A stretch of DNA of 64,000 bases from an uncultured Thermoleophilia bacterium (GCA_963695395.1 CAVOGK010000012.1:205372-269371); one strand, 5' to 3'. Counted from the first letter of the stretch, positions 24,788 to 41,495 are shown. Notes: generated by a model from the sequence alone, not told the origin. Program-made: numbers and translations.

Positions 24788-24806
24788 GGTCACTCCCTCG
24801 CTCTCG

Positions 24807-26003
24807 TCAGGCGCTCGGTGCGCGGTTGCTGATCTCGTCCTCGAAGCCCTCGAGGATGGAGAGGAATGCGCTGGGGCTCGTCTGCCCCAGGCCACACTTG
24901 GAGGCGACCGTCATCGTCTCGGCCAGAGCCTTGACGTCCGCCAGGAACTTGGGCGGGCATTCGCCCTTCTGGAGGAGCTGGACGGCCTGCAACATCTGCG
25001 GGTTGCCGAGGCGGCAGGGCGTGCACTGGCCGCAGCTCTCTTCGACGAAGAACTCGAGGAAGTTCTCGGCAACGTCGAGGATGTCGCGCTCGGGACCGAT
25101 GACCATCACGGAGCCGCCGGTCGGGATGCCTTCGAAGGCAAGCGCGCGGCTGAACTCCTTGGCCGGCACGCAGATGCCGCTGGCGCCGCCGATCTGGACG
25201 GCCTTGGCGCCCTGTCCGCCGACCTCCTCGAGCAGGTCGGCGACGGTGATGCCCCACGGGAACTCGTACACGCCGGGCTTCTCGCAGTCGCCGCTGATGC
25301 TGAAGAGCTTGTAGCCTGTCGACTTGTCGGTGCCGAACTCCTTGAACCAGTCTGTGCCCTTGGCGAAGATCGCCGCCACGGAGGCGAGCGTCTCGACGTT
25401 GTTGACGACGGTCGGGTTGTTCAGGAGGCCGGCGACCACCGGGAACGGCGGGCGGTTGCGCGGCTCGCCGCGGAAGCCCTCGAGGCTCTCGATGAGGGCC
25501 GTCTCCTCGCCGCACACGTACGCGCCGGCGCCCATGGCGGTGATGACGTCGAACTCGAAGCCTTCGACGCCCCCGACGCTGTGACCGAGCAGGCCCTGGC
25601 CGCGTCGCCTCTGGATGACCTCGTTGAGGTGCGGGCGCAGGTACGTGTACTCGGCGCGCAGGTAGATGATGCCGAGCGTCGCGCCGATCGCACGTCCGCC
25701 GATCGTCATGCCCTCGATGACGAGGTCGGCGAACCTGGTGAGGATGACGCGGTCCTTGAAGGTACCGGGTTCGCCCTCGTCGGCGTTGCAGATGATGTAC
25801 TTCTGGTCGGCCTTCTCCGCCGCGCAGAAGCCCCACTTCATGCCGGTGGGGAAGCCTGCGCCGCCGCGTCCTCTGATGTCGCTGTCGCGAACGAAGTCGA
25901 CGAGGTCGGCGCGGCTCATGGCCAGCGCGGCCTTGAGGCCGGCGTCGGCCTCGATGGTCTCGTAGGTGAGGGCGTTGCCCTGGGTCTCGATCATCGCGGG
26001 CAC
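24807..26003 (-). CDS. hydB: NuoF-like flavoprotein subunit (FMN/NADH, one 4Fe-4S), minimal 398-aa form
   Basis: GRGGAGFPTGMKW, NADEGEPGTFKDR, ESCGQCTPCR, CGLGQTS. GTG start follows GGAGGG. No N-terminal 2Fe-2S domain and no C-terminal ferredoxin domain. Confidence 0.9.
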   Translation of the reverse strand: MPAMIETQGNALTYETIEADAGLKAALAMSRADLVDFVRDSDIRGRGGAGFPTGMKWGFCAAEKADQKYIICNADEGEPGTFKDRVILTRFADLVIEGMTIGGRAIGATLGIIYLRAEYTYLRPHLNEVIQRRRGQGLLGHSVGGVEGFEFDVITAMGAGAYVCGEETALIESLEGFRGEPRNRPPFPVVAGLLNNPTVVNNVETLASVAAIFAKGTDWFKEFGTDKSTGYKLFSISGDCEKPGVYEFPWGITVADLLEEVGGQGAKAVQIGGASGICVPAKEFSRALAFEGIPTGGSVMVIGPERDILDVAENFLEFFVEESCGQCTPCRLGNPQMLQAVQLLQKGECPPKFLADVKALAETMTVASKCGLGQTSPSAFLSILEGFEDEISNRAPSA

Positions 26004-26006
26004 CGG

Positions 26007-26505
26007 TCAGCCCTCCTGGGTCGCAGCGGCGGACCCGGCAGGCGGCGACGATCTCGCGCGCCGTCTCCGGGGTGACCCGCGTGTGGACCTCGTCGTTCAC
26101 GAGCAGGGCGGGGCCCTGATCGCACATGCCGACGCAGCTCGCCCACTCGAGGGTGAAGAGCCCGTCGCTCGTGGTCTCGTCGAAGCCGACGCCGAGCTCG
26201 TCGGTGAGGGCCTCAGCGACGGCTTCCTTGCCGGCGAAGTCGCACGCGAGGGTGCCGCAGAGCCGGATCACGAACTGCCCCTCGGGGGCGCCGTGCAGGA
26301 AGGCGTAGAAGGAAGCGACGCTGTAGACCTCCACCGGGTGGATGTCGAGCGCGTCGGCGATGGTCTGCATGGATTCGGAGTCGACCTCGTGGAAGCGCCG
26401 CTTGACGTCTGCGAGGATCGGGATGAGAGAGCTTCTGCCCGGGCCGAGCTTCTCGACCAGGGCGGTGAGGTCGGCGCGGAGTTGATCTTGCTGGGTCGCT
26501 GGCAT
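26007..26505 (-). pseudogene. hydC: NuoE-like 2Fe-2S subunit (HydC-type) whose reading frame lacks a stop; net +1 frameshift near 26026-26034
   Basis: MPATQQDQ... with CGTLAC and CVGMC 2Fe-2S motifs. The frame runs on without a stop through all of hydB to 24790. Shifting one nt near GTCCGCCGCTGC gives ...AATQEG*, with TGA at 26007-26009 two codons before the hydB GTG. Start to that stop is 499 nt (3n+1). Confidence 0.75.
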
Positions 26506-26518
26506 CAGGAGTCCTCTC

Positions 26519-26893
26519 TCACTGCTCGAGGAGCTTCTTGACCTTGGCCACCAGGGTCTGTGGCTCAACGGGCTTGGGCTGGAACTCGTCGACGGGGACG
26601 ATCTCACCGTCCTTGTCGATGTTGAGGCCCATCGCGGCATTGACGCTGGTGAGCATGATGATCGGCACGTCGTTGCCGATCTTGCGGATCTCACGCGCCA
26701 TGCGGAGGCCGTCGTCAGGCTCCTCCATCATGACGTCGAGGATGAGCAGGTCAGGCTTGAGCTCCTCGAGCTTCTTCATCCCGTCGGCGCGATTCGACGC
26801 GCCCTCGACCTCGTAGCCCTCACGCTCGAGGACCAGGCGGCCGGCATCGACGATGTCCGGGTCGTCGTCAACGATGAGAATCTTGGGCACCAC
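26519..26893 (-). CDS. Stand-alone response-regulator receiver (CheY-like), first gene of hydrogenase operon 1
   Basis: ILIVDDD, phospho-acceptor LILDVMM, MLTS, PKP. 124 aa with no output domain. AAGGAG RBS and GTG start. Confidence 0.85.
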   Translation of the reverse strand: MVPKILIVDDDPDIVDAGRLVLEREGYEVEGASNRADGMKKLEELKPDLLILDVMMEEPDDGLRMAREIRKIGNDVPIIMLTSVNAAMGLNIDKDGEIVPVDEFQPKPVEPQTLVAKVKKLLEQ

Positions 26894-27112: not shown

Positions 27113-27130
27113 TTGTGCAAGGGGTCACGA
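27113..27130. promoter_or_regulatory. Weak Rex-operator-like site (TTGTGCAAGGGGTCACGA) in the 330-nt region upstream of operon 1
   Basis: Two mismatches to the TTGTGAA-N4-TTCACAA consensus. On the minus strand it lies just downstream of a possible TTCACT-17-GATACT promoter. Confidence 0.25.
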
Positions 27131-27223: not shown

Positions 27224-28450
27224 CTAGAGCTGAGGCGCCGCCAGGCTCGCGGCATCGACCGCGGGCCCGGACTCAGGCGTGGATCCGGCCGGCGGCGCGT
27301 CGTGGAGGGTCACCGTGAACGTGCTGCCGACGCCGGGCTCGCTCCGCACCTGCGCCTCGCCGTCGTACATGTTGGCGATCTTGCGCACGGTGCTGAGGCC
27401 GAGCCCGCTGCCGAGGATCTTCACCGTCTGTTCGTTCTTGATCCGTTGGAACTCGTTGAAGAGCTTGCCGGCCTCCTCGGGCGTGAGGCCGATGCCGGTG
27501 TCGGCGACGGCGATGGTGACGGCGTCTCCCTTGCGGCTCAGCCGCACGGTGACGGAGCCGCCGTCGCGGTTGTACTTGACGGCGTTGGAGATGAGGTTGT
27601 TGAGGACGATCTCGGCCTCGCCGGGGTCGGCCAGGAGCTCGACGTCGTCGCCGTCCTCGAGCGTCACGGTGATGTCGCGGCGCCCGGCGTCGACGGCGAA
27701 CAGCTCCATCGACGCCTTGGCCAGCTCGCGCAGGTCGACCCTCGTGATCACCCGCTCGCGCTGGCCGGACTCGATGCGCGTGAGGTCGAGCAGGTCCATG
27801 ATCAGCTTCTTCATGCCGTCGACGCGCACGATGCTGCGCTCGACCATCTGCAGGTTCTGGTCGGCCTCGGTCGTGCGCAGGATGTTGAGGTAGCCCTCCA
27901 CCGCGTTGAGCGGCGCCTTGAGCTCGTGCGCGAGCACCGAGATGAAATTGAAGCGGATCTCGCGCTTCTCCTCGGCGAGCTTGCGCGCCTGCTTGCTGAG
28001 GATCAGCTGGCTGGTCGCCTTGCGCAGCGCGTACCGGAGCTCCTCGGGCGTGAACGGCTTGGCGAGGAAGTCGTAGGCCCCGAGCTTGGTCGCCTTGACC
28101 GCCGTCTCGAAGGTCGCATAGGCGGTGATCATGATGGTCAGCACCTCGCGCCCCTGGGAGCTCAAGGCGTCGAGGACGTCCATGCCACCGACGCCCGGCA
28201 GCTTCAGGTCGAGCAGCAGCAGATCGACCGACCCGCCCTCGCCGAGGTAGTCGAGGAAGTCCTCTCCGGTCGTGAAGTAGCGGAACGCGTAGTCGGCGTC
28301 GACGAGGACGTCGCGCACGTGCACACGGTACTTCTGGATGATGCGGCGCACGCCGAGGCAGAGCGCCTCCTCGTCGTCGACCATGACGACCTGCAGCGTG
28401 GCCTGCTGCGGGTCCATGAGGCTCTCGCGGATTGTCGGTTCGACGTTCAT
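27224..28450 (-). CDS. Hybrid receiver-histidine kinase (N-terminal REC, then HisKA + HATPase)
   Basis: REC (VVMVDDE, LLLLDLKLPG, ITAY, AKP) followed by H-box LAHELKAPLNAV and N/G boxes (NLISNAVKYN, GSGLGLS). Confidence 0.85.
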   Translation of the reverse strand: MNVEPTIRESLMDPQQATLQVVMVDDEEALCLGVRRIIQKYRVHVRDVLVDADYAFRYFTTGEDFLDYLGEGGSVDLLLLDLKLPGVGGMDVLDALSSQGREVLTIMITAYATFETAVKATKLGAYDFLAKPFTPEELRYALRKATSQLILSKQARKLAEEKREIRFNFISVLAHELKAPLNAVEGYLNILRTTEADQNLQMVERSIVRVDGMKKLIMDLLDLTRIESGQRERVITRVDLRELAKASMELFAVDAGRRDITVTLEDGDDVELLADPGEAEIVLNNLISNAVKYNRDGGSVTVRLSRKGDAVTIAVADTGIGLTPEEAGKLFNEFQRIKNEQTVKILGSGLGLSTVRKIANMYDGEAQVRSEPGVGSTFTVTLHDAPPAGSTPESGPAVDAASLAAPQL

Positions 28451-28453
28451 CGC

Positions 28454-30508
28454 TCAGCTCCCGGTGATCACCTGCAGGCTCGCCGCAACGTCCGTGGCGG
28501 ACTCGAGTCGCGGCAAGGAGATGGTGAACGTCGTCCCCGTGGGGCCGGCCTCGGGGTCGGCGTTCGACTCCACGGTGATCCGGCCGCGGTGCATCTTGAC
28601 GATGCCGTGCGTGACCGCAAGGCCGAGGCCCGTGCCCTTGCCGACCTGCTTGGTCGTGAAGAACGGGCTGAACAGCTTGTCGAGGTTCTCCTTGGGGATG
28701 CCGGTGCCCTCGTCCTCTACCGCGATCACGACGTCGTCCTCGGTCCCGTCGAGCGTGACGGTGATCGCGCCGCCGTCGGGCATCGCGTGCTGGGCGTTGG
28801 TGAGCAGGTTGGTGAGCACCTGGACGATCTGATCGCCGTCGAGCTCGGCGACCGGGTCTTCGAGGTGGCCGGCCACTTCGACGGAGATGCCCTCGGCGAC
28901 GGGGATCGTGCGCATGACCTCGGCCACCAGGTCGTTGAGGTCGGTCGGCTGACGCACCACGCGGCTCTGGCGGGCGAAGTTGAGCAGGCCGGAGATGATC
29001 TTCTTGCAGCGGTTGGCCTGGTCGACGATGAGTTTGACGTCGGCGGAGACGGCGGGGTCGCTCTCGCAGTCCTCGAGCAGCAGGTTGGCGTGCAGCAGGA
29101 GGATGCCGAGCGGGTTGTTGACCTCGTGGGCGATGCCGGCGGCGAGCTGGCCCATGCTGGCGAGCTTCTCGCTCTTGACCAGCGCCTCCTTGGTCGTCTC
29201 CAGCGAACGGTGCGACTCCTGGAGCTCGTCGACGGTCTTGTGCAGCTCGTCCACCGAGTAGGGCAGGCACATCTCGACCTCGGCCAGGCCCTGCCAGATC
29301 GCGACCGCGTGGTGGCTGCAGGAGTCGTAGCCGCAGGCGCCGCAGTCGAGCTCGTCCTCGGGGGCGTACTTGTTCATACGCGCCAGGATCTCCTGGATCT
29401 GCTCCGGCGTCGGCATGTCGTCGAAGCGCTGGTCGAAGGGAGCGAAGGTCCTTGACAGATCGACGTCGCGGGCGTCCGCGACCGCCGTCTCCCAGGCCGC
29501 CTGGTCGAAGTCGGCCTGGCGGGCGCGGGTCTCGGCGCTGACGTCCGCGCGGCGCTTGAAGACCGGTTCCTCACAGCTGAAGCCGGCGCCCATGATGCAG
29601 CCTTCGCAGCAGAGGATATCGAGCAGGCGCGCCTCGGTATCGCCGTGCTCGAAGTCGGTGATCGCATCCACGAGGTTGGCGCGTCCGTCGGCGCTCACGA
29701 TGTCGCCGCTGAGGAGGTCCTCGTCCAGTTCGGCGGCCTGGAGGAGGCCACGGCTGATGGGGAAGAGGGCCCCGAGGCTGCCGCGCGGCGGGTCGAAGTC
29801 ATCACCCGTGCCGTCGTGCGTGCTGAGGCTCACCCCGCGGCCGGCGAGCAGGGTGCGAAGCTCCACATAGGTGAGCGCGGCGTGCACCTCGTCCTCGAAC
29901 TGCTCGTAGCGCGCCTCGCCCTTCTTGGCGATGCACGGCCCGATGAAGACGATCTTGCACTCGGGGCCGTACTTGTGATGCAGCACGCGCGCGATCGCCA
30001 GCATCGGCGAGACGATGGGCGCCAGGTTGTCGAGGATGTCCGGGTGGTACTTGCGCACGTAGCTGACCACCGCCGGGCAGCTGGTGGCGATGTAGCGCCC
30101 GTCGTCCTGTTCGAGCAGGCGGGCGTACTCGGCGGCCACGAGGTCGGCGCCGAAGCTGACCTCGTGGACGCTCGCGAACCCGAGCTCGCGGAGGGCGCCG
30201 ACCAGTCCGGCCGTGCCGCACTCCGTGAACTCGGCCGGATAGCTCGGCGCCACGATCGCCGCGACCGGCGCGTCGCCGGCGAGCAGGTCCTCGGTGGCCT
30301 CGATGCCGCTGAGCACCTGCTTGGCGTTCTGGCTGCAGACGGTGACGCAGTTGCCGCACCCGATGCAGCGCGTCTGGATGACGCTGGCCTGCCCATCGAG
30401 GATCTGGATGGCCTTGGCGGGGCATTCACGGACGCACGTGTAGCACCGCCGGCACTTCTCGCGGATCGTGGTGACGAGTTGCAGGTTCGGCACGCGGTCT
30501 TCGTTCAT
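28454..30508 (-). CDS. Sensory-type [FeFe]-hydrogenase-like protein fused to a histidine kinase (2x4Fe-4S ferredoxin + H-domain + Cx2Cx4Cx16C + HisKA/HATPase)
   Basis: CRRCYTCVRECP, CIGCGNCVTVCS. Diverged H-domain motifs ATSCPAVV, GPCIAKKGE, LCCEGCIMGAG. Then DCGACGYDSC...C, H-box GIAHEVNNPL and a complete HATPase. ATG at 30508 preferred (the ORF opens at 30580). Confidence 0.85.
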   Translation of the reverse strand: MNEDRVPNLQLVTTIREKCRRCYTCVRECPAKAIQILDGQASVIQTRCIGCGNCVTVCSQNAKQVLSGIEATEDLLAGDAPVAAIVAPSYPAEFTECGTAGLVGALRELGFASVHEVSFGADLVAAEYARLLEQDDGRYIATSCPAVVSYVRKYHPDILDNLAPIVSPMLAIARVLHHKYGPECKIVFIGPCIAKKGEARYEQFEDEVHAALTYVELRTLLAGRGVSLSTHDGTGDDFDPPRGSLGALFPISRGLLQAAELDEDLLSGDIVSADGRANLVDAITDFEHGDTEARLLDILCCEGCIMGAGFSCEEPVFKRRADVSAETRARQADFDQAAWETAVADARDVDLSRTFAPFDQRFDDMPTPEQIQEILARMNKYAPEDELDCGACGYDSCSHHAVAIWQGLAEVEMCLPYSVDELHKTVDELQESHRSLETTKEALVKSEKLASMGQLAAGIAHEVNNPLGILLLHANLLLEDCESDPAVSADVKLIVDQANRCKKIISGLLNFARQSRVVRQPTDLNDLVAEVMRTIPVAEGISVEVAGHLEDPVAELDGDQIVQVLTNLLTNAQHAMPDGGAITVTLDGTEDDVVIAVEDEGTGIPKENLDKLFSPFFTTKQVGKGTGLGLAVTHGIVKMHRGRITVESNADPEAGPTGTTFTISLPRLESATDVAASLQVITGS

Positions 30509-30530
30509 CGGGTCGCCGTCCGGGCGGCGG

Positions 30531-30935
30531 TCACGCGGCGCCGAGGAGCTCGGCGATCTTTGCCAGAAGCGTCTGCGCATCGATGGGCTTGTCGAAGTAG
30601 GCGTCCACGTTCATCTTGGCGAGGTCGTCGGCGGAGTCGGGCTGGAAGTTCAACCCGAGGGCGCTGCTCACCGACGTGCTGATGATGATCGGCACCTCGG
30701 CCGTGCGCGGGTCCTCCTTCAGCTGGGCGGAGAAGGCGAAGCCGGCGTCGATGCTCGTCATCATCAGGTCGGTGATGACCAGGTCCGGAGTCTCGGCGTC
30801 GATGCGCGCGAGCGCCTCGGTGGGGTTGGTGGCGGTGACCACGCGGTGGCCGGCCCCCTCGAGGATGATGCGGTTGATCTCGAGGAAGTCGAAGTCGTCG
30901 TCGACGATGAGTATCAGTGCCTGATCCGCGCTCAT
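30531..30935 (-). CDS. Stand-alone response-regulator receiver, paralogue of 26519-26893
   Basis: LIVDDD, VITDLMM, ISTS, DKP. 134 aa with no output domain. Confidence 0.85.
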   Translation of the reverse strand: MSADQALILIVDDDFDFLEINRIILEGAGHRVVTATNPTEALARIDAETPDLVITDLMMTSIDAGFAFSAQLKEDPRTAEVPIIISTSVSSALGLNFQPDSADDLAKMNVDAYFDKPIDAQTLLAKIAELLGAA

Positions 30936-31065: not shown

Positions 31066-32838
31066 TCAGACGCGGTCGAGCTCGATGTAGTGGGTGTGCA
31101 GGAGGTGATGCGAGATCTCGCCGCACGGCGCCCCGAGGTACTCCTCGTACAGGGCGCAGACGGCCGGGTTCTCGTGCGACTTGCGCAGCTCGCGACCCTC
31201 GTCCTCGCGGTAGATCGCCGCGATGCGCTTCTTGCGCACCTCGTTGGTCGTGAAGCGCGGCTGCCCGCCGCCGCCGATGCAGCCGCCGGGGCAGGTCATG
31301 ACCTCGACGAAGTGGTACTCGGCCTCGCCGCTCTTGACCTGGTCGATGACCTTCTGGGCGTTGCCGAGGCCGTGGGCCACGGCGACCTTGAGGTCGGCGC
31401 CCTCGAGGAAGGCCCAGTCGCCCTTCGCTCCCTCGACCTTGACGGACGCCACCTTCACGCCGTCGAGGCCCTCGATGGGCTCGACGTGCAGGTTGGGGAA
31501 GGGGAACGGCGTCTCGGTGACGATCTCCCAGGCCGTGCGCAGGGCCGCCTCCATGACGCCGCCGGTGTTGGCGAAGATGTCGGCGGCGCCGGTGCTGATG
31601 CCCAGCGGCGCGTCCATCTGCTCGTCGGGCAGGCTGCGAAAGTCGATGCCGGCCTGCTTGATGAGCGCGCCGAGCTCGCGCGTGGTGAGCACGATGTCGA
31701 CGTCCTGCACGCCGCTGTCGTTCATCTCCGGGCGCGCGGCCTCGTACTTCTTGGCCGTGCAGGGCATGACCGAGACGACGACCATGTCCTCCGGCTTCAC
31801 GCCGATCTTCTCGGCGTAGTACGTCTTGGCGATCGCCCCGAACATCTGCTGCGGGCTCTTGCAGGTGCTCAGGTTGTCGAGCATGTCGGGGTTGAAGTGC
31901 TCCATGTAGTTGATCCAGCCCGGGGAGCAGCTGGAGAACTGTGGCAGCGCGACCTGCTCGCCGTCCACGAGTGCCTTCTTGAGGCGCACGAGCAGCTCCG
32001 TGCCTTCCTCCATGATCGTGAGGTCGGCGGTGAAGTCGGTGTCGAAGACGGCGTCGAAGCCGAGGCGGCGGAGCGCGGCGACCATCTTGCCGGTCACCAG
32101 GGTGCCGGCCGGGTAGTCGAAGCACTCGCCGAGCGCGGCGCGGATCGCCGGCGCGGTCTGCACGATGACCGTCTTGGTGGGATCCTCGAGCGCCGCCCAG
32201 ACCTCGTCGATCTGGTTGCGCTCGCTGATGGCGCCCACCGGGCACACGGCGGCGCACTGGCCGCACTGCACGCAGACGACGTCGCTCAGGTTCTGCGAGA
32301 AGGCGGGGCCGATGAGGGTGGCGAAGCCGCGGCCCTGGGCGAACAGGCCGCCGACCCCCTGGACCTCGTTGCACACGGTCACGCAGCGGCGGCAGGAGAT
32401 GCACTTGCCGGTGTCACGGATGAGCGCCGGGGTGCTGTCGTCGAGCATCCTGACGGTCTTCTCGCCCTCGTAGCGCAGGTCGCCGATACCGAGCTCGTCG
32501 GCGAGGGTCCGGAGCTCGCAGTCCGCGGACCGGGCGCAGATCTTGCAGTCGCCGTCGTGCTCCGACAGGAGCAGCTCGACGACCATCTGGCGGCCGTCGC
32601 GGACCTTGCCGCTGTTGGTCTTGACGACCATGCCGTCGGTCGCCGGCTGGCTGCACGAGGCGACCAGCGTGCGTGCGCCCTCCACCTCGACGAGGCAGAC
32701 GCGGCAGGCGCCGATGGACTGGACGTCGTCGAGGTGGCAGAGGGTGGGGATCTTCACGCCGGCCTGGCGGGCCGCCTGAAGCACCGTGGCGCCCTCCGGC
32801 ACCTCGACGCTGATGTCGTCAATAGTCAGGGTTGGCAT
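31066..32838 (-). CDS. hydA: [FeFe]-hydrogenase catalytic subunit, M3-type, copy 2
   Basis: Same domain order as copy 1. H-cluster motifs FSSCSPGW, MPCTAKKYE, EVMTCPGGCIGGGGQP. ATG at 32838 follows an AAGGAGAG RBS. Confidence 0.95.
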   Translation of the reverse strand: MPTLTIDDISVEVPEGATVLQAARQAGVKIPTLCHLDDVQSIGACRVCLVEVEGARTLVASCSQPATDGMVVKTNSGKVRDGRQMVVELLLSEHDGDCKICARSADCELRTLADELGIGDLRYEGEKTVRMLDDSTPALIRDTGKCISCRRCVTVCNEVQGVGGLFAQGRGFATLIGPAFSQNLSDVVCVQCGQCAAVCPVGAISERNQIDEVWAALEDPTKTVIVQTAPAIRAALGECFDYPAGTLVTGKMVAALRRLGFDAVFDTDFTADLTIMEEGTELLVRLKKALVDGEQVALPQFSSCSPGWINYMEHFNPDMLDNLSTCKSPQQMFGAIAKTYYAEKIGVKPEDMVVVSVMPCTAKKYEAARPEMNDSGVQDVDIVLTTRELGALIKQAGIDFRSLPDEQMDAPLGISTGAADIFANTGGVMEAALRTAWEIVTETPFPFPNLHVEPIEGLDGVKVASVKVEGAKGDWAFLEGADLKVAVAHGLGNAQKVIDQVKSGEAEYHFVEVMTCPGGCIGGGGQPRFTTNEVRKKRIAAIYREDEGRELRKSHENPAVCALYEEYLGAPCGEISHHLLHTHYIELDRV

Positions 32839-32855
32839 CCTCTTGCTCTCCTTGC

Positions 32856-35800
32856 TCACGAGCCGTACTTGCCGTAGTCGCAACGCAGGCAGCGCCTCGC
32901 CTCAGCGACGGCCACCTTTGCGGCCCAGCCCAGCTCGACCTCGTCGAAGTTGGTGACGCGGGCACCCACGGCCAGCTCCTCGACCTGGTGACGATCGACC
33001 AGTTCGGGGTCGGCGTCGGGGTCGAAGAACGTGGGCGGCTCGATGTCGCGGCGCCAGAACGCGTGATTGGCGCCGGTGAGGAGCTCGTCCATGCCGGCGG
33101 CTGCCTTCTCGCCGGCGCCGATGGCCTCGACCACCGACGACGGGCCGGTGGCGGCGTCGCCGCCGGTGAAGACCCAGTCGACCGAGGTCTGGCCGGTGTT
33201 CGGGTCGGCGGCGAGGTAGCCCCAGCGGTTGAGCTCGACGGGGGTGCCGTCCAGGACGGCCGGCGCGTCGAGCTTCTGCCCGATCGCGGCGATGACGGTG
33301 TCGGCCTCGACCACGAAGTCGGGGTTGTGGCCGGCGACCGGACGGCGACGGCCGCTGCGGTCGTAGTCGCCCAGCGCCATCTCCTTGCAGCGCACGCCGG
33401 TGACGTTGCCGCTCGCGTCGCGGAGGATCTCCTCCGGGGCGACGAGCGTCATGATGTCGATGCCCTCGAGGTCGGCGGCGTCGATCTCCTCGCCCCACGC
33501 CGGCATCTGCGCCCGGGTGCGACGGTAGAGGATCTTGACGCTCTCGGCGCCGAGGCGCAGGGCGGTGCGGGCGGCGTCGATGGCCGCGTTGCCGCCGCCG
33601 ATCACGGCGACGTTCTTGCCGACTTCGCCGGTGCCGTGCACGTTGTACTGCTTGAGGAACGACAGGCCGTCGTACACGCCGGGGCCCTCCTCACCGGGGA
33701 TGCCGATGCCCATGCCGGCGGGGGCGCCGACGCCGACGAACACGGCCTCGTATCCCTCGTCCTTGAGGCTCTTGAGGGTGAAGTCGCGGCCGAGCGCCTT
33801 GCCGTACTCGAAGCGGGCGCCCATGGCCTCGATCATCTCGATCTCGCGCTCGAGCTCGGGGCGCGGCAGGCGGTAGGCCGGGATGGCCTGGACGAGCATG
33901 CCGCCGGCCTTGGGTTCAGCCTCGAACACGACCGGCTTGTAGCCCAGCCGGGCGAGGAAGTAGGCGGCGGAGAGGCCGGCGGGACCGGAGCCGACGACGG
34001 CCACCTTGCGGGCCGCGTTCTCGGCGTTCTCCAGGATCTCCGGCAGCTGCGCGTCCTTCTCCTGCTCCACCATGAAGCGCTTGACGTGGCGGATCGCGAG
34101 CGACCCGTCCAGGCTCGAGCGCATGCACTTGCTCTCGCAGGGGTGGAAGCAGACGCGGGCGCAGATGCTGGCCAGCGGGTTGCGCTCGCGGTGCAGCTTG
34201 AGGGCGTCGTCGTAGCGCTCCTCGCCCACGAGGCTCACGAAGCCGGGGATGTTGACGCTGGCCGGGCACGCGTTGGAGCAGCGCGCCTTGAACATCGCCC
34301 CGCATACGCCAGCTTCGCAGTACTTGTCCTTGATGTGGGCCTCGTACTCGTGACGGAAGTGACGGATCGTCGAGAGCACGGGGTTGGCGGCCGTCTGGCC
34401 GAGGCCGCAGAGCGCGGTCTGGCTGATCGACTCGCCGAGGGCGACGAGGCGCTCGATGTCGCCCTCTTCGCCCTCACCGTTGCAGATGCGCTCGACGATC
34501 TCGAGCATCCGCTTGGTGCCGACGCGGCACGGCGGGCACTTGCCGCAGCTCTCTTCCTGGGTGAACTCGAGGAAGAAGCGTGCGATGTCGACCATGCACG
34601 TGTCCTCGTCCATGACGATGACGCCGCCGGAGCCCATGATCGCGCCGAGCTCCTGCAGGGTGTCGTAGTCGACGGGCACGTTGAGGTGCTCCTTGGGGAT
34701 GCAGCCGCCGGACGGCCCGCCGAGCTGCGCGGCCTTGTAGGCCTTGTCGCCCGGGATGCCGCCGCCGACCTCGTAGATGAGCTCGCCGAGCTGCATGCCG
34801 ATCGGGACCTCGACGAGGCCGGTGTGCTGCACGTTGCCGCCGAGCGCGAACACCTTGGTGCCCTTGCTGCTCTCGGTGCCGGTGCTGGCGTACCACTCCG
34901 CGCCCTTGAGGACGATCGGCGCGATGTTGGCGAAGGTCTCCACGTTGTTGAGCACGCTGGGCTTGCCCCAGAGGCCCGAGACCGCCGGGAACGGCGGGCG
35001 CGGACGCGGCTCGCCGCGGTGCCCCTCGATCGAGGTCATGAGCGCGGTCTCCTCGCCGCAGACGAAGGCGCCCGAGCCCATGCGGATCTCGAGGTCGAAG
35101 TCGAAGCCACTGCCCATGATGTCGTTGCCGAGCAGGCCGTACTCGCGCGCCTGCCCGAGAGCGTGCTCGAGGCGCTCGACGGCGAGCGGGTACTCGGCGC
35201 GCACGTAGACGTAGCCCGTGTGCGCGCCGATCGCGAAGGCGCCGATGACCATGCCCTCGATGAGCGAGTGCGGGTCGCCCTCGAGCACCGAGCGGTCCAT
35301 GAACGCGCCGGGGTCGCCCTCGTCCGCGTTGCAGAGGATGTACTTGACGTCGTTGTCCTGCTGCTGGGCGAAGCGCCACTTCATGCCCGGTGGGGAAGCC
35401 GGCGCCGCCGCGGCCGCGCAGGCCGCTGGCCAGGACCTCTTCGACGACCTGCTCGGGGGTCATCTCGGTGAGCACCTTGGCGAGGGCCTGGTAGCCGTCG
35501 CGGGCGATGTACTCGTCGATGTTGAGCGGGTCGATGATGCCGGAGTTGCGCAGCACGATCTTGACCTGGCGGTTGAAGAACGGGATGTCGTTCATCTCTG
35601 CCTGGGACTTCTCGGTGCCGGGCGCGTGGCTCACGAGACGCTCGACCACACGGCCCTTGAGGAGGTGCTCCTCGACGATCTCGGGCACGTCGTCGACCTT
35701 GATGTTCTGGTAGAAGACGCCGTCGGGGTAGACGAGCGCCACGGGGCCCTGCACGCAGGGGCCGAGGCAGCCGGTCTCGACGACCTCGATCTCGCCGGCG

Positions 35801-35910
35801 AGCTCGCGCTCCTTGAGCTCGGCGCGCACGGCCTCGCTCACGTCGAGGGCGCCGGAGGCGATGCATCCACCGCCGGTGCAGATCAGGAAGTGACTTCTCA
35901 CATCAGCCAT
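32856..35910 (-). pseudogene. hydB: Giant flavoprotein subunit: thioredoxin-like 2Fe-2S + NuoF (FMN/NADH/4Fe-4S) fused to a GltD/NfnB-like FAD/NAD(P)H oxidoreductase; net +1 frameshift at 35386-35388
   Basis: N-terminal part (ORF 34474-36087 from ATG 35910) ends ...GRGGAGFPTG. The next frame continues MKWRFAQQQ...NADEGDPGAF...ESCGKCPPCR...CGLGQTA, then GltD-like CEAGVC..CSNACP..CARVCFHPCESKC, VAVVGSGPAGLSAAY, VIGGGNAAID. The break is at a GGG run (ACCGGGCATGAAG). Total 3055 nt (3n+1). Confidence 0.85.
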
Positions 35911-35927
35911 AGTCGGATCACTCGCTC

Positions 35928-36299
35928 TCAGGTCTTGATGAGGTAGGCCTCGACGGGTGCGCCGCCCACGAGGTGATGGATGACGATCGTGTGGACCCTG
36001 GCCTTGTCGAGCAGGCCGTAGCGGTACAGCGTGCCGTCGGGCATCGTCAGGGTCGCCATCGGCTCCTCTTCGCACAGGCCGGCGCAACCGGACTGATGGA
36101 GGCTGGCGGAGGTCACGCCGTTGACGGACAGCTCGCTCATGAAGGCGGCGACGATATCGCGTGCGCCGGCGGCGATGCCGCAGGTGCCCATGTGCACGGT
36201 CACCTGCGTCTCCTTGCGGCCGTCGCGCAGGTCGATGTCGGCCTTCGCCATGGCGGCCAGATTCATGAGCTGGTCAGGACTGGTGATCCTGTCGGCCAT
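35928..36299 (-). CDS. Thioredoxin-like [2Fe-2S] ferredoxin (HydD-like small subunit)
   Basis: 123 aa with VHMGTCGIAAG...SGCAGLCEEEP pattern. Sits between the NuoE-like and NuoF-like genes. Confidence 0.8.
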   Translation of the reverse strand: MADRITSPDQLMNLAAMAKADIDLRDGRKETQVTVHMGTCGIAAGARDIVAAFMSELSVNGVTSASLHQSGCAGLCEEEPMATLTMPDGTLYRYGLLDKARVHTIVIHHLVGGAPVEAYLIKT

Positions 36300-36300
36300 G

Positions 36301-36901
36301 TCAGGCACTCCTTTCGCGGCCCGCGACCGGCTCCGCAAGCCGGTCCGCGGAACGCCGTTCACTACGACCGCTCGTTTCGGCCAGGACGGGCTCCTCCGCG
36401 TACTGGGCGAGGATCTCGCCGACACGCTTTGGGCTTGACGCGGTGGTGGACGTCGTCGTCGACCATGATCACAGGAGCCAGGCCGCAGGCGCCGAAGCAG
36501 CGGCCGATCTCGAGCGAGAACAGGCGGTCCTCGGTGGTGCCGCCCAGGTCGATCCCCAGCTCTTTCTTGAACGCGTCGAGCACTGCGACGCCGCCGCGGA
36601 CGTAGCAGGCGGTGCCCAGACAGATGCGGACGAGGTGCTGGCCGCGCGGGACGGTCGTGAAGAAGGAATAGAAGCCGACCACACCGGCGACCTCGCTGTA
36701 GGGCTTGCGCAGCTCCCGCGCGATGTGCTTGAGGGCGACCTCCGGGAGGTAGCCGAAGATGCCCTGCGCGAGCTGAAGCACGGGAATCAGGGCGCCCGGC
36801 CTGCCCTTGTACTCGGCGATGACGACGTCGAGGCGCTCGAGGAGTTCCTCCTCGGTCGGTTCCTCGTCGCAGCACACGCACGCCTGTACGGTTTCACTCA
36901 T
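36301..36901 (-). pseudogene. hydC: NuoE-like 2Fe-2S subunit (HydC-type), copy 2, with a net +1 frameshift at about 36426-36431
   Basis: MSETVQAC... with CLGTAC and CFGACGLAP motifs. After ...HHRVKPK the frame becomes junk. The next frame reads RVGEILAQYAEEPVLAE...* and ends at TGA 36301-36303, directly before the next ATG. The break is at an AAA run. 601 nt (3n+1). Confidence 0.8.
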
Positions 36902-37452
36902 TCCCCTCTCCTTCGCTCGAGTCCGCTGCGATCGCTCCGCAGATGATGTCCTTGGGTCATGGCGAGGTCCGCCTGGAACGCCATCAGGTCGGCCAGTCGC
37001 CGGGGCAGCTGCGGGCCGCAGAGCGAGACGCTCGTCCCGCCGGCTGTCATGTCGACCCGGAACTCGATCTCCGGGTTGGTCACCGCCATGGTGGCGACGG
37101 AGGCGGCGATGTCGCCCAACGGCGGGCGATCGACGTCGCCGAGGCGCATCCACGCGTGCACGGCGACGCCGCCGAGCTCCTCGGATCGGCCCACGCTGAG
37201 CCCACCGCCGGCGGCCTCGGCCGCCTGGCGGAAGAGGCTCAGGCCGAGGCCGGTCTTCTTGTTCGCCTTGGTCGTGAAGAACGGGTCGAGGGCCTGCTCC
37301 GGCTCCACCGGCAGCCCCGGCCCGTCGTCCTCGACCCGGATCGAGAGCTCGTCGCGCCGGCGGTCGGCGTCGATCGCCGTGGTGATCACCGTCGCCCCGG
37401 CGCGCACCGAGTTCTCGAGGATGTCGAGCAGGTAGAGCGAGAGGTCATGCAT
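36898..37452 (-). CDS. Histidine-kinase-like ATPase (HATPase_c only; no H-box or sensor domain)
   Basis: MHDLSLYLLDILENSVRAG...DDGPGL...TGLGLS. ATG overlaps the PHP gene stop (ATGCATGA). Its own stop overlaps the NuoE ATG. Confidence 0.75.
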   Translation of the reverse strand: MHDLSLYLLDILENSVRAGATVITTAIDADRRRDELSIRVEDDGPGLPVEPEQALDPFFTTKANKKTGLGLSLFRQAAEAAGGGLSVGRSEELGGVAVHAWMRLGDVDRPPLGDIAASVATMAVTNPEIEFRVDMTAGGTSVSLCGPQLPRRLADLMAFQADLAMTQGHHLRSDRSGLERRRGE

Positions 37453-38186
37453 CGCCGATGCCCCTCCCGTCGAGGCCGTGCAGCGCGAGGAGCAGCTCAC
37501 GGAAGTCCGGACGCGCGCAGCGGACGGCGGTACGTGCCGCGCCGACGTCCTCGCGGTAGTGGGCGTCCGACGAGCGCAGGATCGGGAGGCCGTACACGGC
37601 GAACTCGGCCTCCCGCTCGGACCCGGGCGGCACGTGTCGCGAAAGCTCGACGGCGTCGAATCCGGCCTCCTCCGGGAAGAAGCCGAGCTGGCCGATCACG
37701 CCGAAGCTCGAGCGGTCGATGTGCGCGGCCACGGCGATGCCGTTGTGGCGGTGGACGAGCTCGACGACGGCGTCGACGCCGAGCGGCGTCGCCGTCGCGA
37801 GCGCGAGCGTCTCGCGACCCGTCGTCGCGCCGCTCGGCGTCGCAGACGTGCTGCTCGCCGAAGAAGGCCTCGTAGTCGTCGTCGATCCGCGGCAGCGTCG
37901 CTCCGACCTCCGCGGCCGCCGCCTCGGCGACGGGCGCGGACGGGAAGAGGCCGACCACGTGACACTCCTCCGCAGTCGTGATCTCCATCCCGGCGATCAC
38001 GGCGAGGCGCGCGCCGGCGGCCGCCTGGACGGCGGCGGCGTTGCGCGCGGTGTTGTGGTCGCAGACGGCGATCATCGCGAGGCCCTCAGCGAGCGCCGCG
38101 TCGACGATGGCCGGCGGCGTCATCTCGGCGTCCGCGCAGGGCGACAGCGCCGTGTGGACGTGCAGGTCTGCAAAGCAGACGTTCAC
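37445..38186 (-). pseudogene. PHP-domain metal-dependent phosphoesterase with a net +1 frameshift at about 37818-37820
   Basis: VNVCFADLHVHTALSPCAD...VCDHN...GMEITT in one frame. RETLALATATPLGVDAVVELVHRHNGIAVAAHIDRSSFG...SSDAHY in the next. The break is at a GGG run. 742 nt (3n+1). Confidence 0.75.
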
Positions 38187-38537
38187 GCACGGCTCCCTTT
38201 CACCCCGAGGGCGTACAGGCGGCCGACGATGTCGAAGGTGTCCGCCGGAGACGAGTAGAGCGAGAGCCCCTCGGCGGCGGCTTTCGCGAGCACGTCGTCC
38301 TCGGGCATGCGGTTCGCCGGCGAAGACCACGGCCGCGAGTTCCGCGTGGCTGGCGACGGCGATCACGTTGAGGTGCACCTGCAGGGTGACGAGCAGGCCG
38401 CCCTCGGGCGCGTGCGCGAGCACGTCGCTGAGCAGATCCGACGCGTAGCCGCGGTCGACCTCGGCGTCGCGGCTGCCGGACACGTCCGGCGTGAGCTCGG
38501 TGAATCCGAGCTTGCTGGCGATATCGTCGAGCTTCAT
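38183..38537 (-). pseudogene. DRTGG-domain protein with a net +1 frameshift at about 38313-38321
   Basis: MKLDDIASKLGFTEL...LLVTLQVHLNVIAVASHAELAAVVFAG, then in the next frame NRMPEDDVLAKAAAEGLSLYSSPADTFDIVGRLYALGVKGSRA*. Its stop overlaps the PHP GTG (GTGA). 355 nt (3n+1). Confidence 0.7.
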
Positions 38538-40099
38538 GTCCGGCTCTCCTCCTCGGGGGTGACGTACGGGCAGAGCGCCCGCCCGGCACGCTCCATCACG
38601 ATGTCCTCGGCAAGCGCCGCGCAGGTCGGTGCGCCGCACACGCCACAGTCCTTGCCGGGCAGGGCCCGGGTCTCGGTGTCGAGTCGCGCGAGCTTGCGGA
38701 TCGCCACCGCCATGTCCGCGTCGAGGCGGATCCCGGGACGCGCGCGGAAGGGTCGAGTGCGCTCGAGACTGCCGCCGCCCGCGGGGGCATCGCCGCCGGC
38801 GGCGGCCCAGCGCCAGGAGGTGACGCTGGCATCCTCTTCGAGCAGCGGCGAGCCGAAGCAGCCGCCGTCACAGATGAAGGGCTCGATGGCTGCGACGCCC
38901 GGCAGGCGGTCGTCCTCGACCGCCTCGAGCACCGCGAGGACGTGGGAGACACCGGTCACGACGAGCAGGTCGTCCGCGCCGCCGGCTTGCGGCGACGTCG
39001 TCGGCGTGCCGGGCACGTGGGGCGCGCGCGCCGCGAGACGCGGCAGGATGGCGTCGCGCACCGCCGCGGCCGTCACGGCGTCGCGCTGCGCGATCGGCTG
39101 CTGCGCCAGCAGTGCGCTCCGCTGGCTCGGGCACGAGACGGCGAAGGTCACGTCGCGGCCGGCGAGATCGCGCTGTGCGGCCTCCCAGGGCGAGGCGAGG
39201 GGCGCGAGATGGTCGAGCAGCGACGGGAACTTGACCTCGAGGAGGTTCACGACGGCGGGGCAGACCGGTGAGATGAGCGGCGCCGGCGCGTCGCTCGTGG
39301 CGGCCAGCTCGATGACGGCGCGGCGCAGATCGTCCTCGTGGCCGTGCACGGAGACGACCTCGTCGTAGCCCAGCCCGCGGAGCTCCTCGACGACCGCGCT
39401 GACCGGGTGCTCGCCGAAGCCGGCGAGAAGGCCCGGCGGGACGACGAGCACGTCGCCGCCGCCGAGCGCGCCCGCGGCGTCGATCATGGTGAGCGCGCCG
39501 GGGCCGCAGGCGCCGATGCAGGCGGTGCAGTCGATGCACAGGTGGTCGAGCACGTCTGGATGGGCGTCACGCACGCGGATCGCGGCCGTCGGGCAGGCGA
39601 CCAGGCAGTGGCGGCAGTCTTTGCAGAGCTCGGCGACGACGCCGAGCGAGGAGGGTCGCGCCCCCTGGTCGGTCGCCTCAGGCCTGAGTGCGACCGAGAA
39701 GCTCACGCGCGTGCCTTCGCCGGCGGTGGACGTGACGCTGAGCCGATCGCTGTTGCGCAGGATGTTCGGGAGCCCCATGCCGGCGCCGAAGCCCAGGGCG
39801 CGGGCTTCCGCCGAAGCCGTCGACCAGCCCTCTCTCATGGCGGTGGCGACGTCCGGGATGCCCGGGCCGCGGTCGATGACGTCGACGTCGAGTTGGCCGT
39901 CACTGACGGCGGCCTCCAGGCGACCGCCGTCCTCGGCGTGGATCACGACGTTCATCTCGGCCTCGTAGGCGGCGATCATGGCCCGGCGCACCGCGTCGCT
40001 CTCGGCGCCGATCCGCTTGAGGTGCTGCTTGAGGTCACGTGACGCGGCGCCTGCGCTCGAGAAGTCCCTGCAGCGGATGTCATAGGCCAGGTGCTCCAT
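38534..40099 (-). CDS. RsbW/SpoIIAB-like serine-kinase (HATPase) domain fused to 2x4Fe-4S ferredoxin, a degenerate [FeFe]-hydrogenase H-domain and a Cx2Cx4Cx16C motif
   Basis: N-terminus AAYEAEMNVVIHAEDG...DRGPGI...GFGAGMGLPN. CKDCRHCLVACP, CIDCTACIGACG. H-domain-like SPVCPAVV, VSCPSQRS (no Lys), FICDGGCFGSP. C-terminal DCGVCGAPTC...C. Confidence 0.85.
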   Translation of the reverse strand: MEHLAYDIRCRDFSSAGAASRDLKQHLKRIGAESDAVRRAMIAAYEAEMNVVIHAEDGGRLEAAVSDGQLDVDVIDRGPGIPDVATAMREGWSTASAEARALGFGAGMGLPNILRNSDRLSVTSTAGEGTRVSFSVALRPEATDQGARPSSLGVVAELCKDCRHCLVACPTAAIRVRDAHPDVLDHLCIDCTACIGACGPGALTMIDAAGALGGGDVLVVPPGLLAGFGEHPVSAVVEELRGLGYDEVVSVHGHEDDLRRAVIELAATSDAPAPLISPVCPAVVNLLEVKFPSLLDHLAPLASPWEAAQRDLAGRDVTFAVSCPSQRSALLAQQPIAQRDAVTAAAVRDAILPRLAARAPHVPGTPTTSPQAGGADDLLVVTGVSHVLAVLEAVEDDRLPGVAAIEPFICDGGCFGSPLLEEDASVTSWRWAAAGGDAPAGGGSLERTRPFRARPGIRLDADMAVAIRKLARLDTETRALPGKDCGVCGAPTCAALAEDIVMERAGRALCPYVTPEEESRT

Positions 40100-41143: not shown

Positions 41144-41203
41144 TGTTCGCTCCCGGGCGGTGGGTTGCGGTCTCGGTCGCCGAGTTCGTTACAGAACGAA
41201 CGC

Positions 41204-41219
41204 TGTGAATCCTGTCACA
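41204..41219. promoter_or_regulatory. Rex operator candidate TGTGAATCCTGTCACA (TGTGA-N6-TCACA), about 60 nt upstream of rex
   Basis: Perfect inverted repeat matching the core of the Rex box (TTGTGAA-N4-TTCACAA). Lies in the divergent rex/aminotransferase intergenic region, next to a second 7-bp inverted repeat (gttcgtt-acag-aacgaac, about 41185-41202). Confidence 0.55.
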
Positions 41220-41495
41220 ATTCTGCCGTCAACGAAGGCTCTCTGTCAACAGTGTCGCCCAGAACAGAACACACTCGCGCATTGTCCAAGTTGGCCAACT
41301 GAACCCGGATCATCGTGTCGCGCGTACGTTGACATGGAGCGTGCCGGACGTTTTGGCTCTGGTAGGGTGACGGCAGCGAGCCATGGGATGTCCAGGATCC
41401 GCCTGTGGCGGTGACTGTTCCCATCGCAGGGGCCGGCGCGCGTCGGCGGGCCGGCCACATCAATCAGGATCATGCTCGGATCTGGAGGTCACTAC

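Follow-up and report, generated by a model that had tools for sequence, protein, structure and literature searches.

Group D (M2e) holds putative sensory [FeFe] hydrogenases, with TamHydS of Thermoanaerobacter mathranii as its type example (PMC8163306, PMC13104023). The interaction partners of Group D proteins were still unidentified in 2026, and finding them has been called critical (PMC13104023). Here, we analyse a gene at positions 38534 to 40099, on the minus strand of a 64,000-nucleotide stretch of DNA from an uncultured Thermoleophilia bacterium (CAVOGK010000012.1:205372-269371; the whole stretch is called the window below), which encodes an ATPase domain of the SpoIIAB/RsbW kinase type in one reading frame with a hydrogenase-like sensor part. 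Judged by its sequence, the sensor part is related to the Group D (TamHydS-type) proteins. As with these, its gene precedes a HydABC-type group A hydrogenase and is associated with a histidine kinase-like ATPase (PMC8163306, PMC13104023), and the protein ends in a Cx2Cx4Cx16C motif, the published signature of M2e/M2f sensory hydrogenases (PMC8163306, PMC13104023). Unlike in Group D, where the ATPase is a separate gene, it is fused to the sensor here.

Other described systems are more distant. Group C (M2f), with TmHydS as an example, and the histidine-kinase-fused sensor at 28454-30580 of the window share with the protein described here the F-domain, the H-domain, the Cx2Cx4Cx16C motif, an output domain within the same chain and the link to hydrogenase operons. 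The Group C outputs are C-terminal (PAS, HisKA-HATPase, MCP or PP2C) and K358 is kept, whereas the present protein has an N-terminal output of the serine-kinase type and a degenerate pocket. The regulatory [NiFe] hydrogenase HoxBC and its kinase HoxJ follow the same logic, in which a hydrogenase-derived sensor coupled to a kinase steers hydrogenase gene expression (as cited in PMC5707799). Groups E-G of the 2024 classification, which are archaeal minimal or hybrid enzymes, offered no fit. HoxBC differs from the present protein in its unrelated metal site and fold, and the target of HoxJ, a histidine kinase, is a response regulator. A further point of comparison is eukaryotic Nar1/NARFL (IOP1), in which the H-domain scaffold and the cluster cysteines are kept, no diiron subsite is present and only Fe-S clusters are bound. 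Nar1/NARFL shares no recent common descent with the present protein, lacks a kinase and acts in cytosolic Fe-S assembly, but by analogy it provides a precedent for the working proposed below.

The fused protein is common in metagenomes, uncharacterised and generically named in the databases. A literature search, with subscription journals outside its scope, retrieved no description of the fused form, of the degenerate clade or of an association with DRTGG, PHP or Rex-DRTGG proteins. It returned nothing relevant that ties DRTGG or RsbW to [FeFe] hydrogenases, and the flanking histidine kinase-like ATPase was named in PMC8163306 only.

A kinase-type domain and a hydrogenase-like Fe-S module in one polypeptide

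The open reading frame codes for 521 amino acids (aa) and is free of stop codons and frameshifts. Pfam identifies a HATPase_c_2 domain (aa 17-134; expectation value, E, 3e-9), a Fer4 dicluster region (aa 155-205), a partial Fe_hyd_lg_C match confined to aa 233-307 (profile positions 27-104 of 245) and a PF04060 FeS domain (aa 480-512; E 6e-10), but neither a HisKA nor a PAS domain; without HisKA, the protein has no H-box. All NCBIfam models stay below their cut-offs, with FeFe_hydrog_B1 (43 bits against 450) and spIIAB (43 against 135) scoring highest. A sequence search of solved structures gave only weak and partial matches, so that a comparison of folds was needed. The fold was modelled with AlphaFold2 from 68 homologues (mean predicted local distance difference test, pLDDT, 82; predicted template modelling score 0.74) and compared by Foldseek. 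For the N-terminal 140 residues, superposition on SpoIIAB (1til, 1th8, 1tid, 1thn and 1l0o) gives template modelling (TM) scores of 0.73-0.78, normalised to SpoIIAB, and a root-mean-square deviation of ~3.3 A, and the model beyond residue 140 matches the [FeFe] hydrogenases DdH of D. desulfuricans, CpI, TmHydA of T. maritima and CbA5H (E 4e-10 to 1e-7). Thus, a SpoIIAB/RsbW-like GHKL kinase domain is joined to an [FeFe]-hydrogenase-like Fe-S module in a single polypeptide. An initial annotation of the window had proposed an RsbW-type N-terminus of the GHKL class without an H-box, followed by a hydrogenase-like sensor with two ferredoxin motifs and recognisable L1, L2 and L3 motifs; the Pfam domains and the Foldseek folds bear out the first two proposals, and all the motifs are found where it had placed them.

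The putative serine-kinase domain contains the N box EAEMNVVIH, the G1 box DRGPGI and the G2 box GFGAGMGLPN. Its ATP-binding residues (E46/E48/N50/H54, D76-G78-G80 and G103-F-G-A-G107-x-G109-L-P-N) are invariant in 68 homologues. The kinase resembles SpoIIAB/RsbW in size, fold, N/G1/G2 motifs and the missing H-box. Its match to the spIIAB model (E 3e-11) stays far under the cut-off, and therefore it shares the fold class of SpoIIAB and is no orthologue.

In the sensor part, all eight F-domain cysteines are invariant among the close homologues, as are the arginines of the AIRVR motif. TamHydS contacts its C-terminal domain through these AIRVR arginines (PMC13104023), and the Arg and Glu/Asp pairs of the interface between F-domain and C-terminal domain are kept in the present protein. 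The four cysteines of the C-terminal motif and its AED residues are likewise invariant in the close homologue set. This motif is predicted to form a fourth [4Fe-4S] site, and the chain ends 11 residues past its last cysteine. The H-domain-like region retains the cubane cysteines C280, C323, C410 and C414, which correspond to C300, C355, C499 and C503 in CpI numbering (used below for all H-domain positions unless stated otherwise), but in a site-by-site alignment most of the residues that hold the diiron subsite are absent. Q326, at the position of K358, is invariant in the 68 close homologues.

The fusion is genuine and widespread and not special to the genome from which the window comes. More than 100 full-length homologues of 515-550 aa, with 56-92% identity, align with the protein from end to end and run unbroken across the junction between kinase and sensor. 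They derive from independent ENA, JGI, NCBI and Logan assemblies, obtained on several sequencing platforms. When each species was scanned through a single genome, relatives turned up in at least 518 genomes, and 79 loci were kept. These loci, mostly with end-to-end matches, represent Thermoleophilia and other Actinomycetota, Planctomycetota/Phycisphaerae, Hydrogenedentota, Nitrospiraceae, Bradymonadales and a single bin with the label Bathyarchaeia. The organism of the window is an actinobacterium of the Thermoleophilia type, and its nearest loci are 91% identical. The locus from the Bathyarchaeia bin (L078, contig DATKVG010000115.1, binned as Candidatus Bathyarchaeia) contains a cassette that is 45% identical to the present protein, a finding that points to horizontal transfer or to an error in binning.

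The split form of the protein also exists. In a Christensenella-like locus, around the Group D protein P0355, kinase and sensor are separate neighbouring genes in the order DRTGG (117 aa), HATPase_c_2 (137 aa), Group D HydS (441 aa), a 112-aa protein, PHP, NuoE-like, HATPase_c (183 aa), a 125-aa protein, NuoF-like and HydA. The N-terminal 140 aa of the fused protein are 42% identical to the separate kinase (E 2e-39), and with the adjoining HydS its C-terminal 382 aa share 30% identity (E 4e-48). Its two halves are thus homologous to two adjacent genes, and the protein represents the fused form of these neighbours. The initial annotation had named such an arrangement of separate genes for Firmicutes hydrogenase operons and had argued from the fusion that both parts act as one unit; the arrangement was indeed encountered in this locus, within the same cassette, and the fusion does argue for joint action. 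Additional fusions connect the other components. P0207 (607 aa) is a kinase-fused protein with wholly canonical Group D pocket motifs, so that the fusion and the loss of the pocket are separable events. P0198 (545 aa) and P0268 (563 aa) are canonical Group D hydrogenases with a small DRTGG domain at their C-terminus. Together with the Rex-DRTGG protein encoded next to the present gene, three links by domain fusion are available: kinase to sensor (the present protein and P0207), sensor to DRTGG (P0198 and P0268) and Rex to DRTGG.

Two sensor clades and the diiron pocket

With aa 140-521 as query, HMMER retrieved 1741 hits at E <=0.001 from 1.84 billion cluster representatives, and these hits fall into two architectures. 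For 109 of these, 20 diagnostic positions were left out of the alignment and the sequences were clustered on the remaining positions. Two clusters were obtained, which share 28% identity with one another, against 36-40% among the members of either cluster. The Group D-like cluster (n=53) has a median length of 444 aa and an N-terminal kinase in a single member, whereas the cluster of the present protein (n=56) has a median length of 523 aa and carries the kinase in 49 of its members. Of the seven sequences without kinase in the latter cluster, at least one has a 524-aa member in its own 90% identity cluster. The first cluster agrees with TamHydS at A137, S191, E252, E289, L291 and D378-C379, as these residues have been described (PMC8163306, PMC10407848, PMC11803613, PMC13104023), and its Firmicutes members are named '[Fe-Fe] hydrogenase large subunit C-terminal domain-containing protein' by NCBI.

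The four cubane cysteines are universal in both clusters, except for C503 in two sequences of the clade to which the present protein belongs. The residues around the diiron subsite tell a different story. K358 is Lys in 39 and Arg in 6 of the 53 Group D-like sequences; in the clade of the present protein it is never Lys, but Gln in 42 and Glu in 8 of 56. P231 is retained in 47/53 Group D-like sequences versus 12/56, P354 in 50/53 versus 4/56, and the W..GG(E/V/Q) loop in 40/53 versus 2/56. At M353, Thr or Ser is found in 43/53 Group D-like sequences, and Val, Ala or Pro in 49/56 of the others; G506 is Gly in all 53 and Ser in 45/56, respectively. The A230-P231-S232 region changes from APS[LF]Y to PxA[LF]L and the L1 region from ISSACPAV to ISPVCPAVV. 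Of the diiron-holding residues that were compared (K358, P231/S232, P354 and P324), P324 is the sole survivor, being kept in 48/56 sequences of the clade. The spacing between the cluster ligands is also reduced, from 55 to 43 residues between C300 and C355 and from 102 to 88 between C355 and C499. In the model of the present protein, the linker that takes the place of the diiron-lining loop is disordered, with pLDDT <50 at aa 364-374.

The initial annotation had pointed to an L2 motif without the canonical Lys and had also considered that L2 might simply be misaligned. The absence of Lys stands for the entire clade and is not the product of misalignment. The HydA of the window is correctly placed at all checked positions but C300, where it has Ser because of a natural L1 variant (see below), the 53 Group D-like sequences are correctly placed as well, and the two clades separate without the diagnostic sites. 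A misaligned but canonical L2 was therefore rejected. On the sequence comparisons, the degenerate L2 belongs to a consistent loss of the diiron pocket throughout the clade, in which the Fe-S scaffold is otherwise well kept. The combined loss of K358, P231, P354 and the GG(E/V) loop makes a sensor with Fe-S clusters only the likelier reading, and members of this clade probably carry no other metal cofactor than these clusters.

Compared with Group D, the protein thus has in common the F-domain, the four cubane cysteines, the Cx2Cx4Cx16C motif and the missing PAS domain. A residue other than Cys at C299 is a further shared feature, although it is mostly Ala in Group D and Val here, which is acceptable. 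The differences are a Gln at K358, a Val in place of Ser/Thr at M353, the lost P231 and P354, and the absence of the E252 relay and of the GGE loop, while the equivalent of E289 (both in TamHydS numbering) is kept. In addition, the H-domain is shorter and the protein falls into a separate sequence cluster. The protein is regarded as a descendant of Group D that works in a similar way, but because it lacks the Ser/Thr at M353, the E252 relay and the diiron contacts, we do not count it among the Group D hydrogenases.

The regulatory cassette and the hydrogenase island

The genes from 41143 to ~28454 are all encoded on the minus strand (Table 1). The gene of the kinase-sensor protein is the second of a nine-gene cassette with the order [Rex-]DRTGG, kinase-sensor, DRTGG, PHP, HATPase, HydC, ferredoxin, HydB-GltD and HydA. 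The stop codon of rex-DRTGG lies 3 nucleotides (nt) ahead of the kinase-sensor ATG, and the kinase-sensor TGA overlaps by 4 nt (ATGA) with the ATG of the small DRTGG gene. This order is near-invariant in the 79 related loci. Counting in each case the loci that could be scored, an upstream DRTGG was found in 73/75, with a Rex N-terminus attached or adjacent in 51/75, a downstream DRTGG in 68/70, PHP in 68/70, the second HATPase_c in 49/50, HydB (NuoF) in 50/50 and HydA in 49/50. DRTGG proteins are the steadiest neighbours of the kinase-sensor pair. In the non-actinobacterial phyla, most loci show at the upstream position the DRTGG part alone. The cassette is an old and conserved regulatory set that precedes NADH-linked HydABC-type hydrogenase operons.

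The upstream protein consists of Rex and a C-terminal DRTGG-like domain. Its Rex part scores 179 bits against a cut-off of 126 in NCBIfam (scored on the orthologue in the related locus L008), and its C-terminal domain matches the Christensenella-like DRTGG gene with E 6e-18. The small DRTGG protein matches the 112-aa Christensenella-like protein with E 7e-21, and a SDLLS motif is near-invariant in 26 recovered small DRTGG proteins, mostly from Actinomycetota and some from Planctomycetota. A Rex operator-like palindrome, which precedes the start codon of rex-DRTGG by ~60 nt, is the best match in the window, with 2 mismatches to TTGTGAAnnnnTTCACAA, at 0.23 chance matches expected for <=3 mismatches. 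In ~17 related loci, a comparable site stands immediately before the cassette; Planctomycetota loci without a detected upstream Rex sequence are among them.

In contrast to SpoIIAB/RsbW systems, the kinase is covalently joined to an Fe-S sensor, and neither a STAS substrate nor a sigma factor nor a PP2C phosphatase occurs in its operon; the search for these three covered the cassette, in the window and in the Christensenella-like locus, and not the rest of the genome. Its candidate partners are instead the DRTGG-domain proteins and the PHP phosphoesterase, which occupy the place of the STAS partner in the cassette.

Indels relative to intact L008 orthologues are found between 36362 and 38537 of the window, in the small DRTGG gene, in PHP and at the C-terminus of NuoE, a pattern that is typical of an unpolished long-read metagenome-assembled genome.

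Table 1. Positions of the described features in the window, counted from its first nucleotide.
Feature	Coordinates	Strand	Basis
Kinase-sensor gene: kinase, F-domain, trimmed H-domain and C-terminal [4Fe-4S] motif, 521 aa	38534-40099	-	Open reading frame, Pfam, homologues, Foldseek
GHKL serine-kinase domain (predicted activity), aa 1-134	39698-40099	-	HATPase_c_2, Foldseek match to SpoIIAB, invariant motifs
F-domain, two CxxCxxCxxxC(P) motifs (C159/162/165/169; C188/191/194/198)	39485-39637	-	Fer4 families
Trimmed H-domain-like region, aa ~210-445	38765-39472	-	Partial Fe_hyd_lg_C, Foldseek matches to DdH/CpI/TmHydA, site counts
L1 motif SPVCPAVV, aa 277-284; C299 to Val, ligand C300 and P301 kept	39248-39271	-	Alignment
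L2 motif VSCPSQRS, aa 321-328; C355 kept, M353 to Val, P354 to Ser, K358 to Gln	39116-39139	-	Alignment
Variable-length low-complexity linker RAPHVPGTPTTSPQAGGADD, replacing the diiron-lining W..GG(E/V) loop	38969-39028	-	pLDDT, motif counts
L3 motif FICDGGCFGSP, aa 408-418; C499 and C503 kept, M497 to Phe, G506 to Ser	38846-38878	-	Alignment
C-terminal Cx2Cx4Cx16C motif, CGVCGAPTC...(16)...C (C485, C488, C493, C510)	38564-38662	-	PF04060, E 6e-10
Rex operator-like palindrome TTGTGACAGGATTCACAG (written on the minus strand)	41203-41220		Best match in the window, 2 mismatches
Rex (HTH and Rossmann fold with GAGNLG) fused to C-terminal DRTGG-like domain of ~130 aa	40103-41143	-	Pfam, NCBIfam
Small DRTGG-like gene, ~117 aa, frameshifted after ~aa 73	38184-38537	-	Clean orthologue L008 9566-9919
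PHP-domain metal phosphoesterase, ~246 aa, frameshifted, halves in different frames	37445-38185	-	Pfam, comparison with L008
Stand-alone HATPase_c protein, histidine-kinase catalytic domain without DHp	36898-37452	-	Pfam
HydC (NuoE-like), 2Fe-2S ferredoxin, HydB-GltD (frameshifted) and group A HydA	31066-36901	-	Pfam, synteny
HydB-GltD, split by frameshift	32856-36087	-	Clean orthologue L008 12191-15244
HydA of the cassette	31066-32883	-	
Other sensor: Fer4, H-domain (K358 kept), Cx2Cx4Cx16C, HisKA, HATPase_c	28454-30580	-	Pfam, alignment
Hybrid REC-HisKA-HATPase kinase	27224-28450	-	
Weaker Rex operator-like palindrome, 3 mismatches	27113-27130		
Second NuoE-like gene and second HydA	22859-26694	-	
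Second HydA	22859-24895	-	
GAF-HisKA-HATPase kinase	21252-22550	-	
Radical SAM/BATS protein, HydE/HydG type	19852-21255	-	

Several features of the wider island deserve mention. The initial annotation had regarded the kinase-sensor protein as the second, different sensor of the locus, sharing its C-terminal motif with the kinase downstream. Both statements hold, since that kinase (28454-30580) keeps K358, has HisKA and HATPase_c domains and contains the same PF04060 motif. In HydB, a 2Fe-2S thioredoxin-like part is joined over 1017 aa to NuoF and to a GltD/NfnB-like NAD(P)-binding flavoprotein module (Fer4_20 and Pyr_redox_2), and a NuoF-GltD query matched downstream in 50/50 loci whose length allowed scoring. 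This fusion suggests an NADPH-linked or doubly flavin-based hydrogenase. Both HydA copies have (S/T)SCSPGW in L1 in place of the textbook TSCCPGW and thus, by alignment, Ser at the position of the cubane ligand C300. A sequencing error was considered and rejected because the motif is shared by the solved structure of an electron-bifurcating HydA1 (7q4v); with its occurrence in 55 cassette-linked HydA genes as well, TSCSPGW is a natural variant. The weaker of the two operator-like palindromes closely follows the REC-HisKA-HATPase gene and precedes the second NuoE/HydA set.

Proposed signalling route and competing explanations

Considering the domain composition, the pocket residues and the gene order together, we favour, by a modest margin over an even chance, a redox-responsive Fe-S sensor kinase that is derived from Group D and acts on DRTGG proteins, including Rex-DRTGG. 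The individual steps of such a route are held with clearly less confidence than this overall picture. The H-site would bind a plain [4Fe-4S] cluster, in which case the protein would read redox state or cluster integrity and would not split H2. As redox input, ferredoxin or the hydrogenase could load the four clusters with electrons, or O2 could damage them, and the fused kinase would be gated by the redox state or the conformation of the Fe-S module. The kinase may then phosphorylate or sequester DRTGG-domain proteins in a manner that resembles partner switching. Its targets would be the translationally coupled small DRTGG protein and, in Actinomycetota, also the DRTGG tail of Rex, and the outcome would be a second signal on top of the NADH/NAD+ control of the Rex-regulated hydrogenase operon. 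PHP could reset the system by acting on phosphoproteins as a phosphatase or through hydrolysis of a nucleotide ligand. We know of no function for the DRTGG domain; such domains are found in nucleotide-regulated CBS pyrophosphatases. Combined with the likeness of PHP to nucleotide phosphoesterases, this makes a circuit with a nucleotide ligand possible.

In its most specific form, the proposal reads as follows: an H-cluster-free descendant of Group D would provide the redox or O2 input of an undescribed cascade of the partner-switching type, in which an RsbW-like kinase acts on DRTGG instead of STAS proteins, PHP provides the reset and Rex-DRTGG the output in Actinomycetota, and Group D H2 sensors such as TamHydS, whose H-cluster is intact, would signal through the same scheme. 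This version is put forward tentatively, as a possibility to which we give considerably less credence than to the overall picture.

Several observations weigh against a sensor kinase that carries Fe-S clusters only and addresses DRTGG proteins. Concerning the partners, the direct Pfam match to DRTGG is below threshold for both the Rex tail (E 0.007) and the small DRTGG protein (E 1e-4). No phospho-acceptor could be named when the DRTGG proteins were inspected for a candidate; the first Ser of SDLLS was considered but not assigned as such, because it is Cys in the Christensenella-like orthologue. The nearest named families of PHP are nucleotide phosphoesterases (RNase RNM and pAp phosphatase) more than protein phosphatases, and a role of PHP as protein phosphatase is for that reason only a possibility. 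The second HATPase_c protein has been given no part in the scheme. Concerning the pocket, the equivalent of E495 (E406 in the present protein and E289 in TamHydS numbering) is retained, radical SAM genes of the H-cluster maturase type are present in the same gene island, and Gln is found at position 358 in 5/53 otherwise canonical Group D-like sequences, so that the exchange of Lys for Gln by itself is no proof of cofactor loss. A Gln at this position could still donate a hydrogen bond to the cyanide (CN) ligand.

The observations on the pocket would fit a genuine H2 sensor, with a full H-cluster in an unusual pocket in which Gln substitutes for Lys 358 and H2 drives the kinase, as proposed for TamHydS. 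The four conserved ligand cysteines and the hydrogenase fold retrieved by Foldseek are compatible with this explanation, and Group C and Group D pockets are much altered and nevertheless bind the cofactor (PMC8163306). Against it stand the simultaneous, clade-wide losses of K358 (0/56), P231, P354 and the hallmark Ser/Thr at M353, and the replacement of the GG(E/V) loop, which carries the proton relay residue E252 in TamHydS, by a disordered linker of variable length. In group A enzymes, substitutions of K358 abolish cofactor insertion. Moreover, a sensor with a canonical pocket is already encoded at the locus (28454-30580). We therefore regard an H2 sensor as unlikely, although it is the strongest of the competing explanations.

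Less probable still is a classical anti-sigma factor, or a protein that controls hydrogenase subunits post-translationally, with DRTGG, PHP and Rex being no partners at all. SpoIIAB is the best structural match, and the second HATPase_c gene stands among the hydrogenase structural genes, but the cassettes of the window and of the Christensenella-like locus contain no sigma factor, STAS or PP2C protein, and DRTGG proteins flank the gene in 68-73 of 70-75 loci and are elsewhere fused to the sensor or to Rex. It is very improbable that the protein is no sensor but an accessory subunit for electron transfer or assembly, with a chaperone-type ATPase domain. Its four predicted Fe-S clusters and its co-transcription with HydABC would suit such a subunit; yet the closest characterised relative turns over very slowly and is considered sensory (PMC8163306), the N-terminus is of the RsbW/SpoIIAB kinase type and not of the Hsp90/MutL type, and the gene is found in the regulatory half of the operon, beside Rex. 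Finally, an assembly artefact caused by the loss of a stop codon or by an indel between two genes, a worry already voiced in the initial annotation, can be dismissed, because the reading frame is intact and the 515-550-aa architecture recurs in hundreds of independent assemblies from several phyla, even though the neighbouring DRTGG, PHP, NuoE C-terminus and NuoF sequences of the window do contain indels.

The redox-responsive sensor kinase thus remains the preferred explanation. The fusions are strong hints of physical partnership and, in combination with a cassette that is conserved across phyla, they name candidate partners of Group D sensors that can be tested. The clade of the present protein forms a natural loss-of-pocket series beside the fused but intact-pocket P0207, and may help to tell which residues are required to hold the diiron cofactor. 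It also offers an example of a catalytic H-domain scaffold that has probably been reduced to a plain Fe-S sensor. If the proposed route is true, it would provide a first function for the DRTGG domain and would add a second input to the Rex control of fermentative H2 metabolism in the abundant, uncultured Thermoleophilia of soils.

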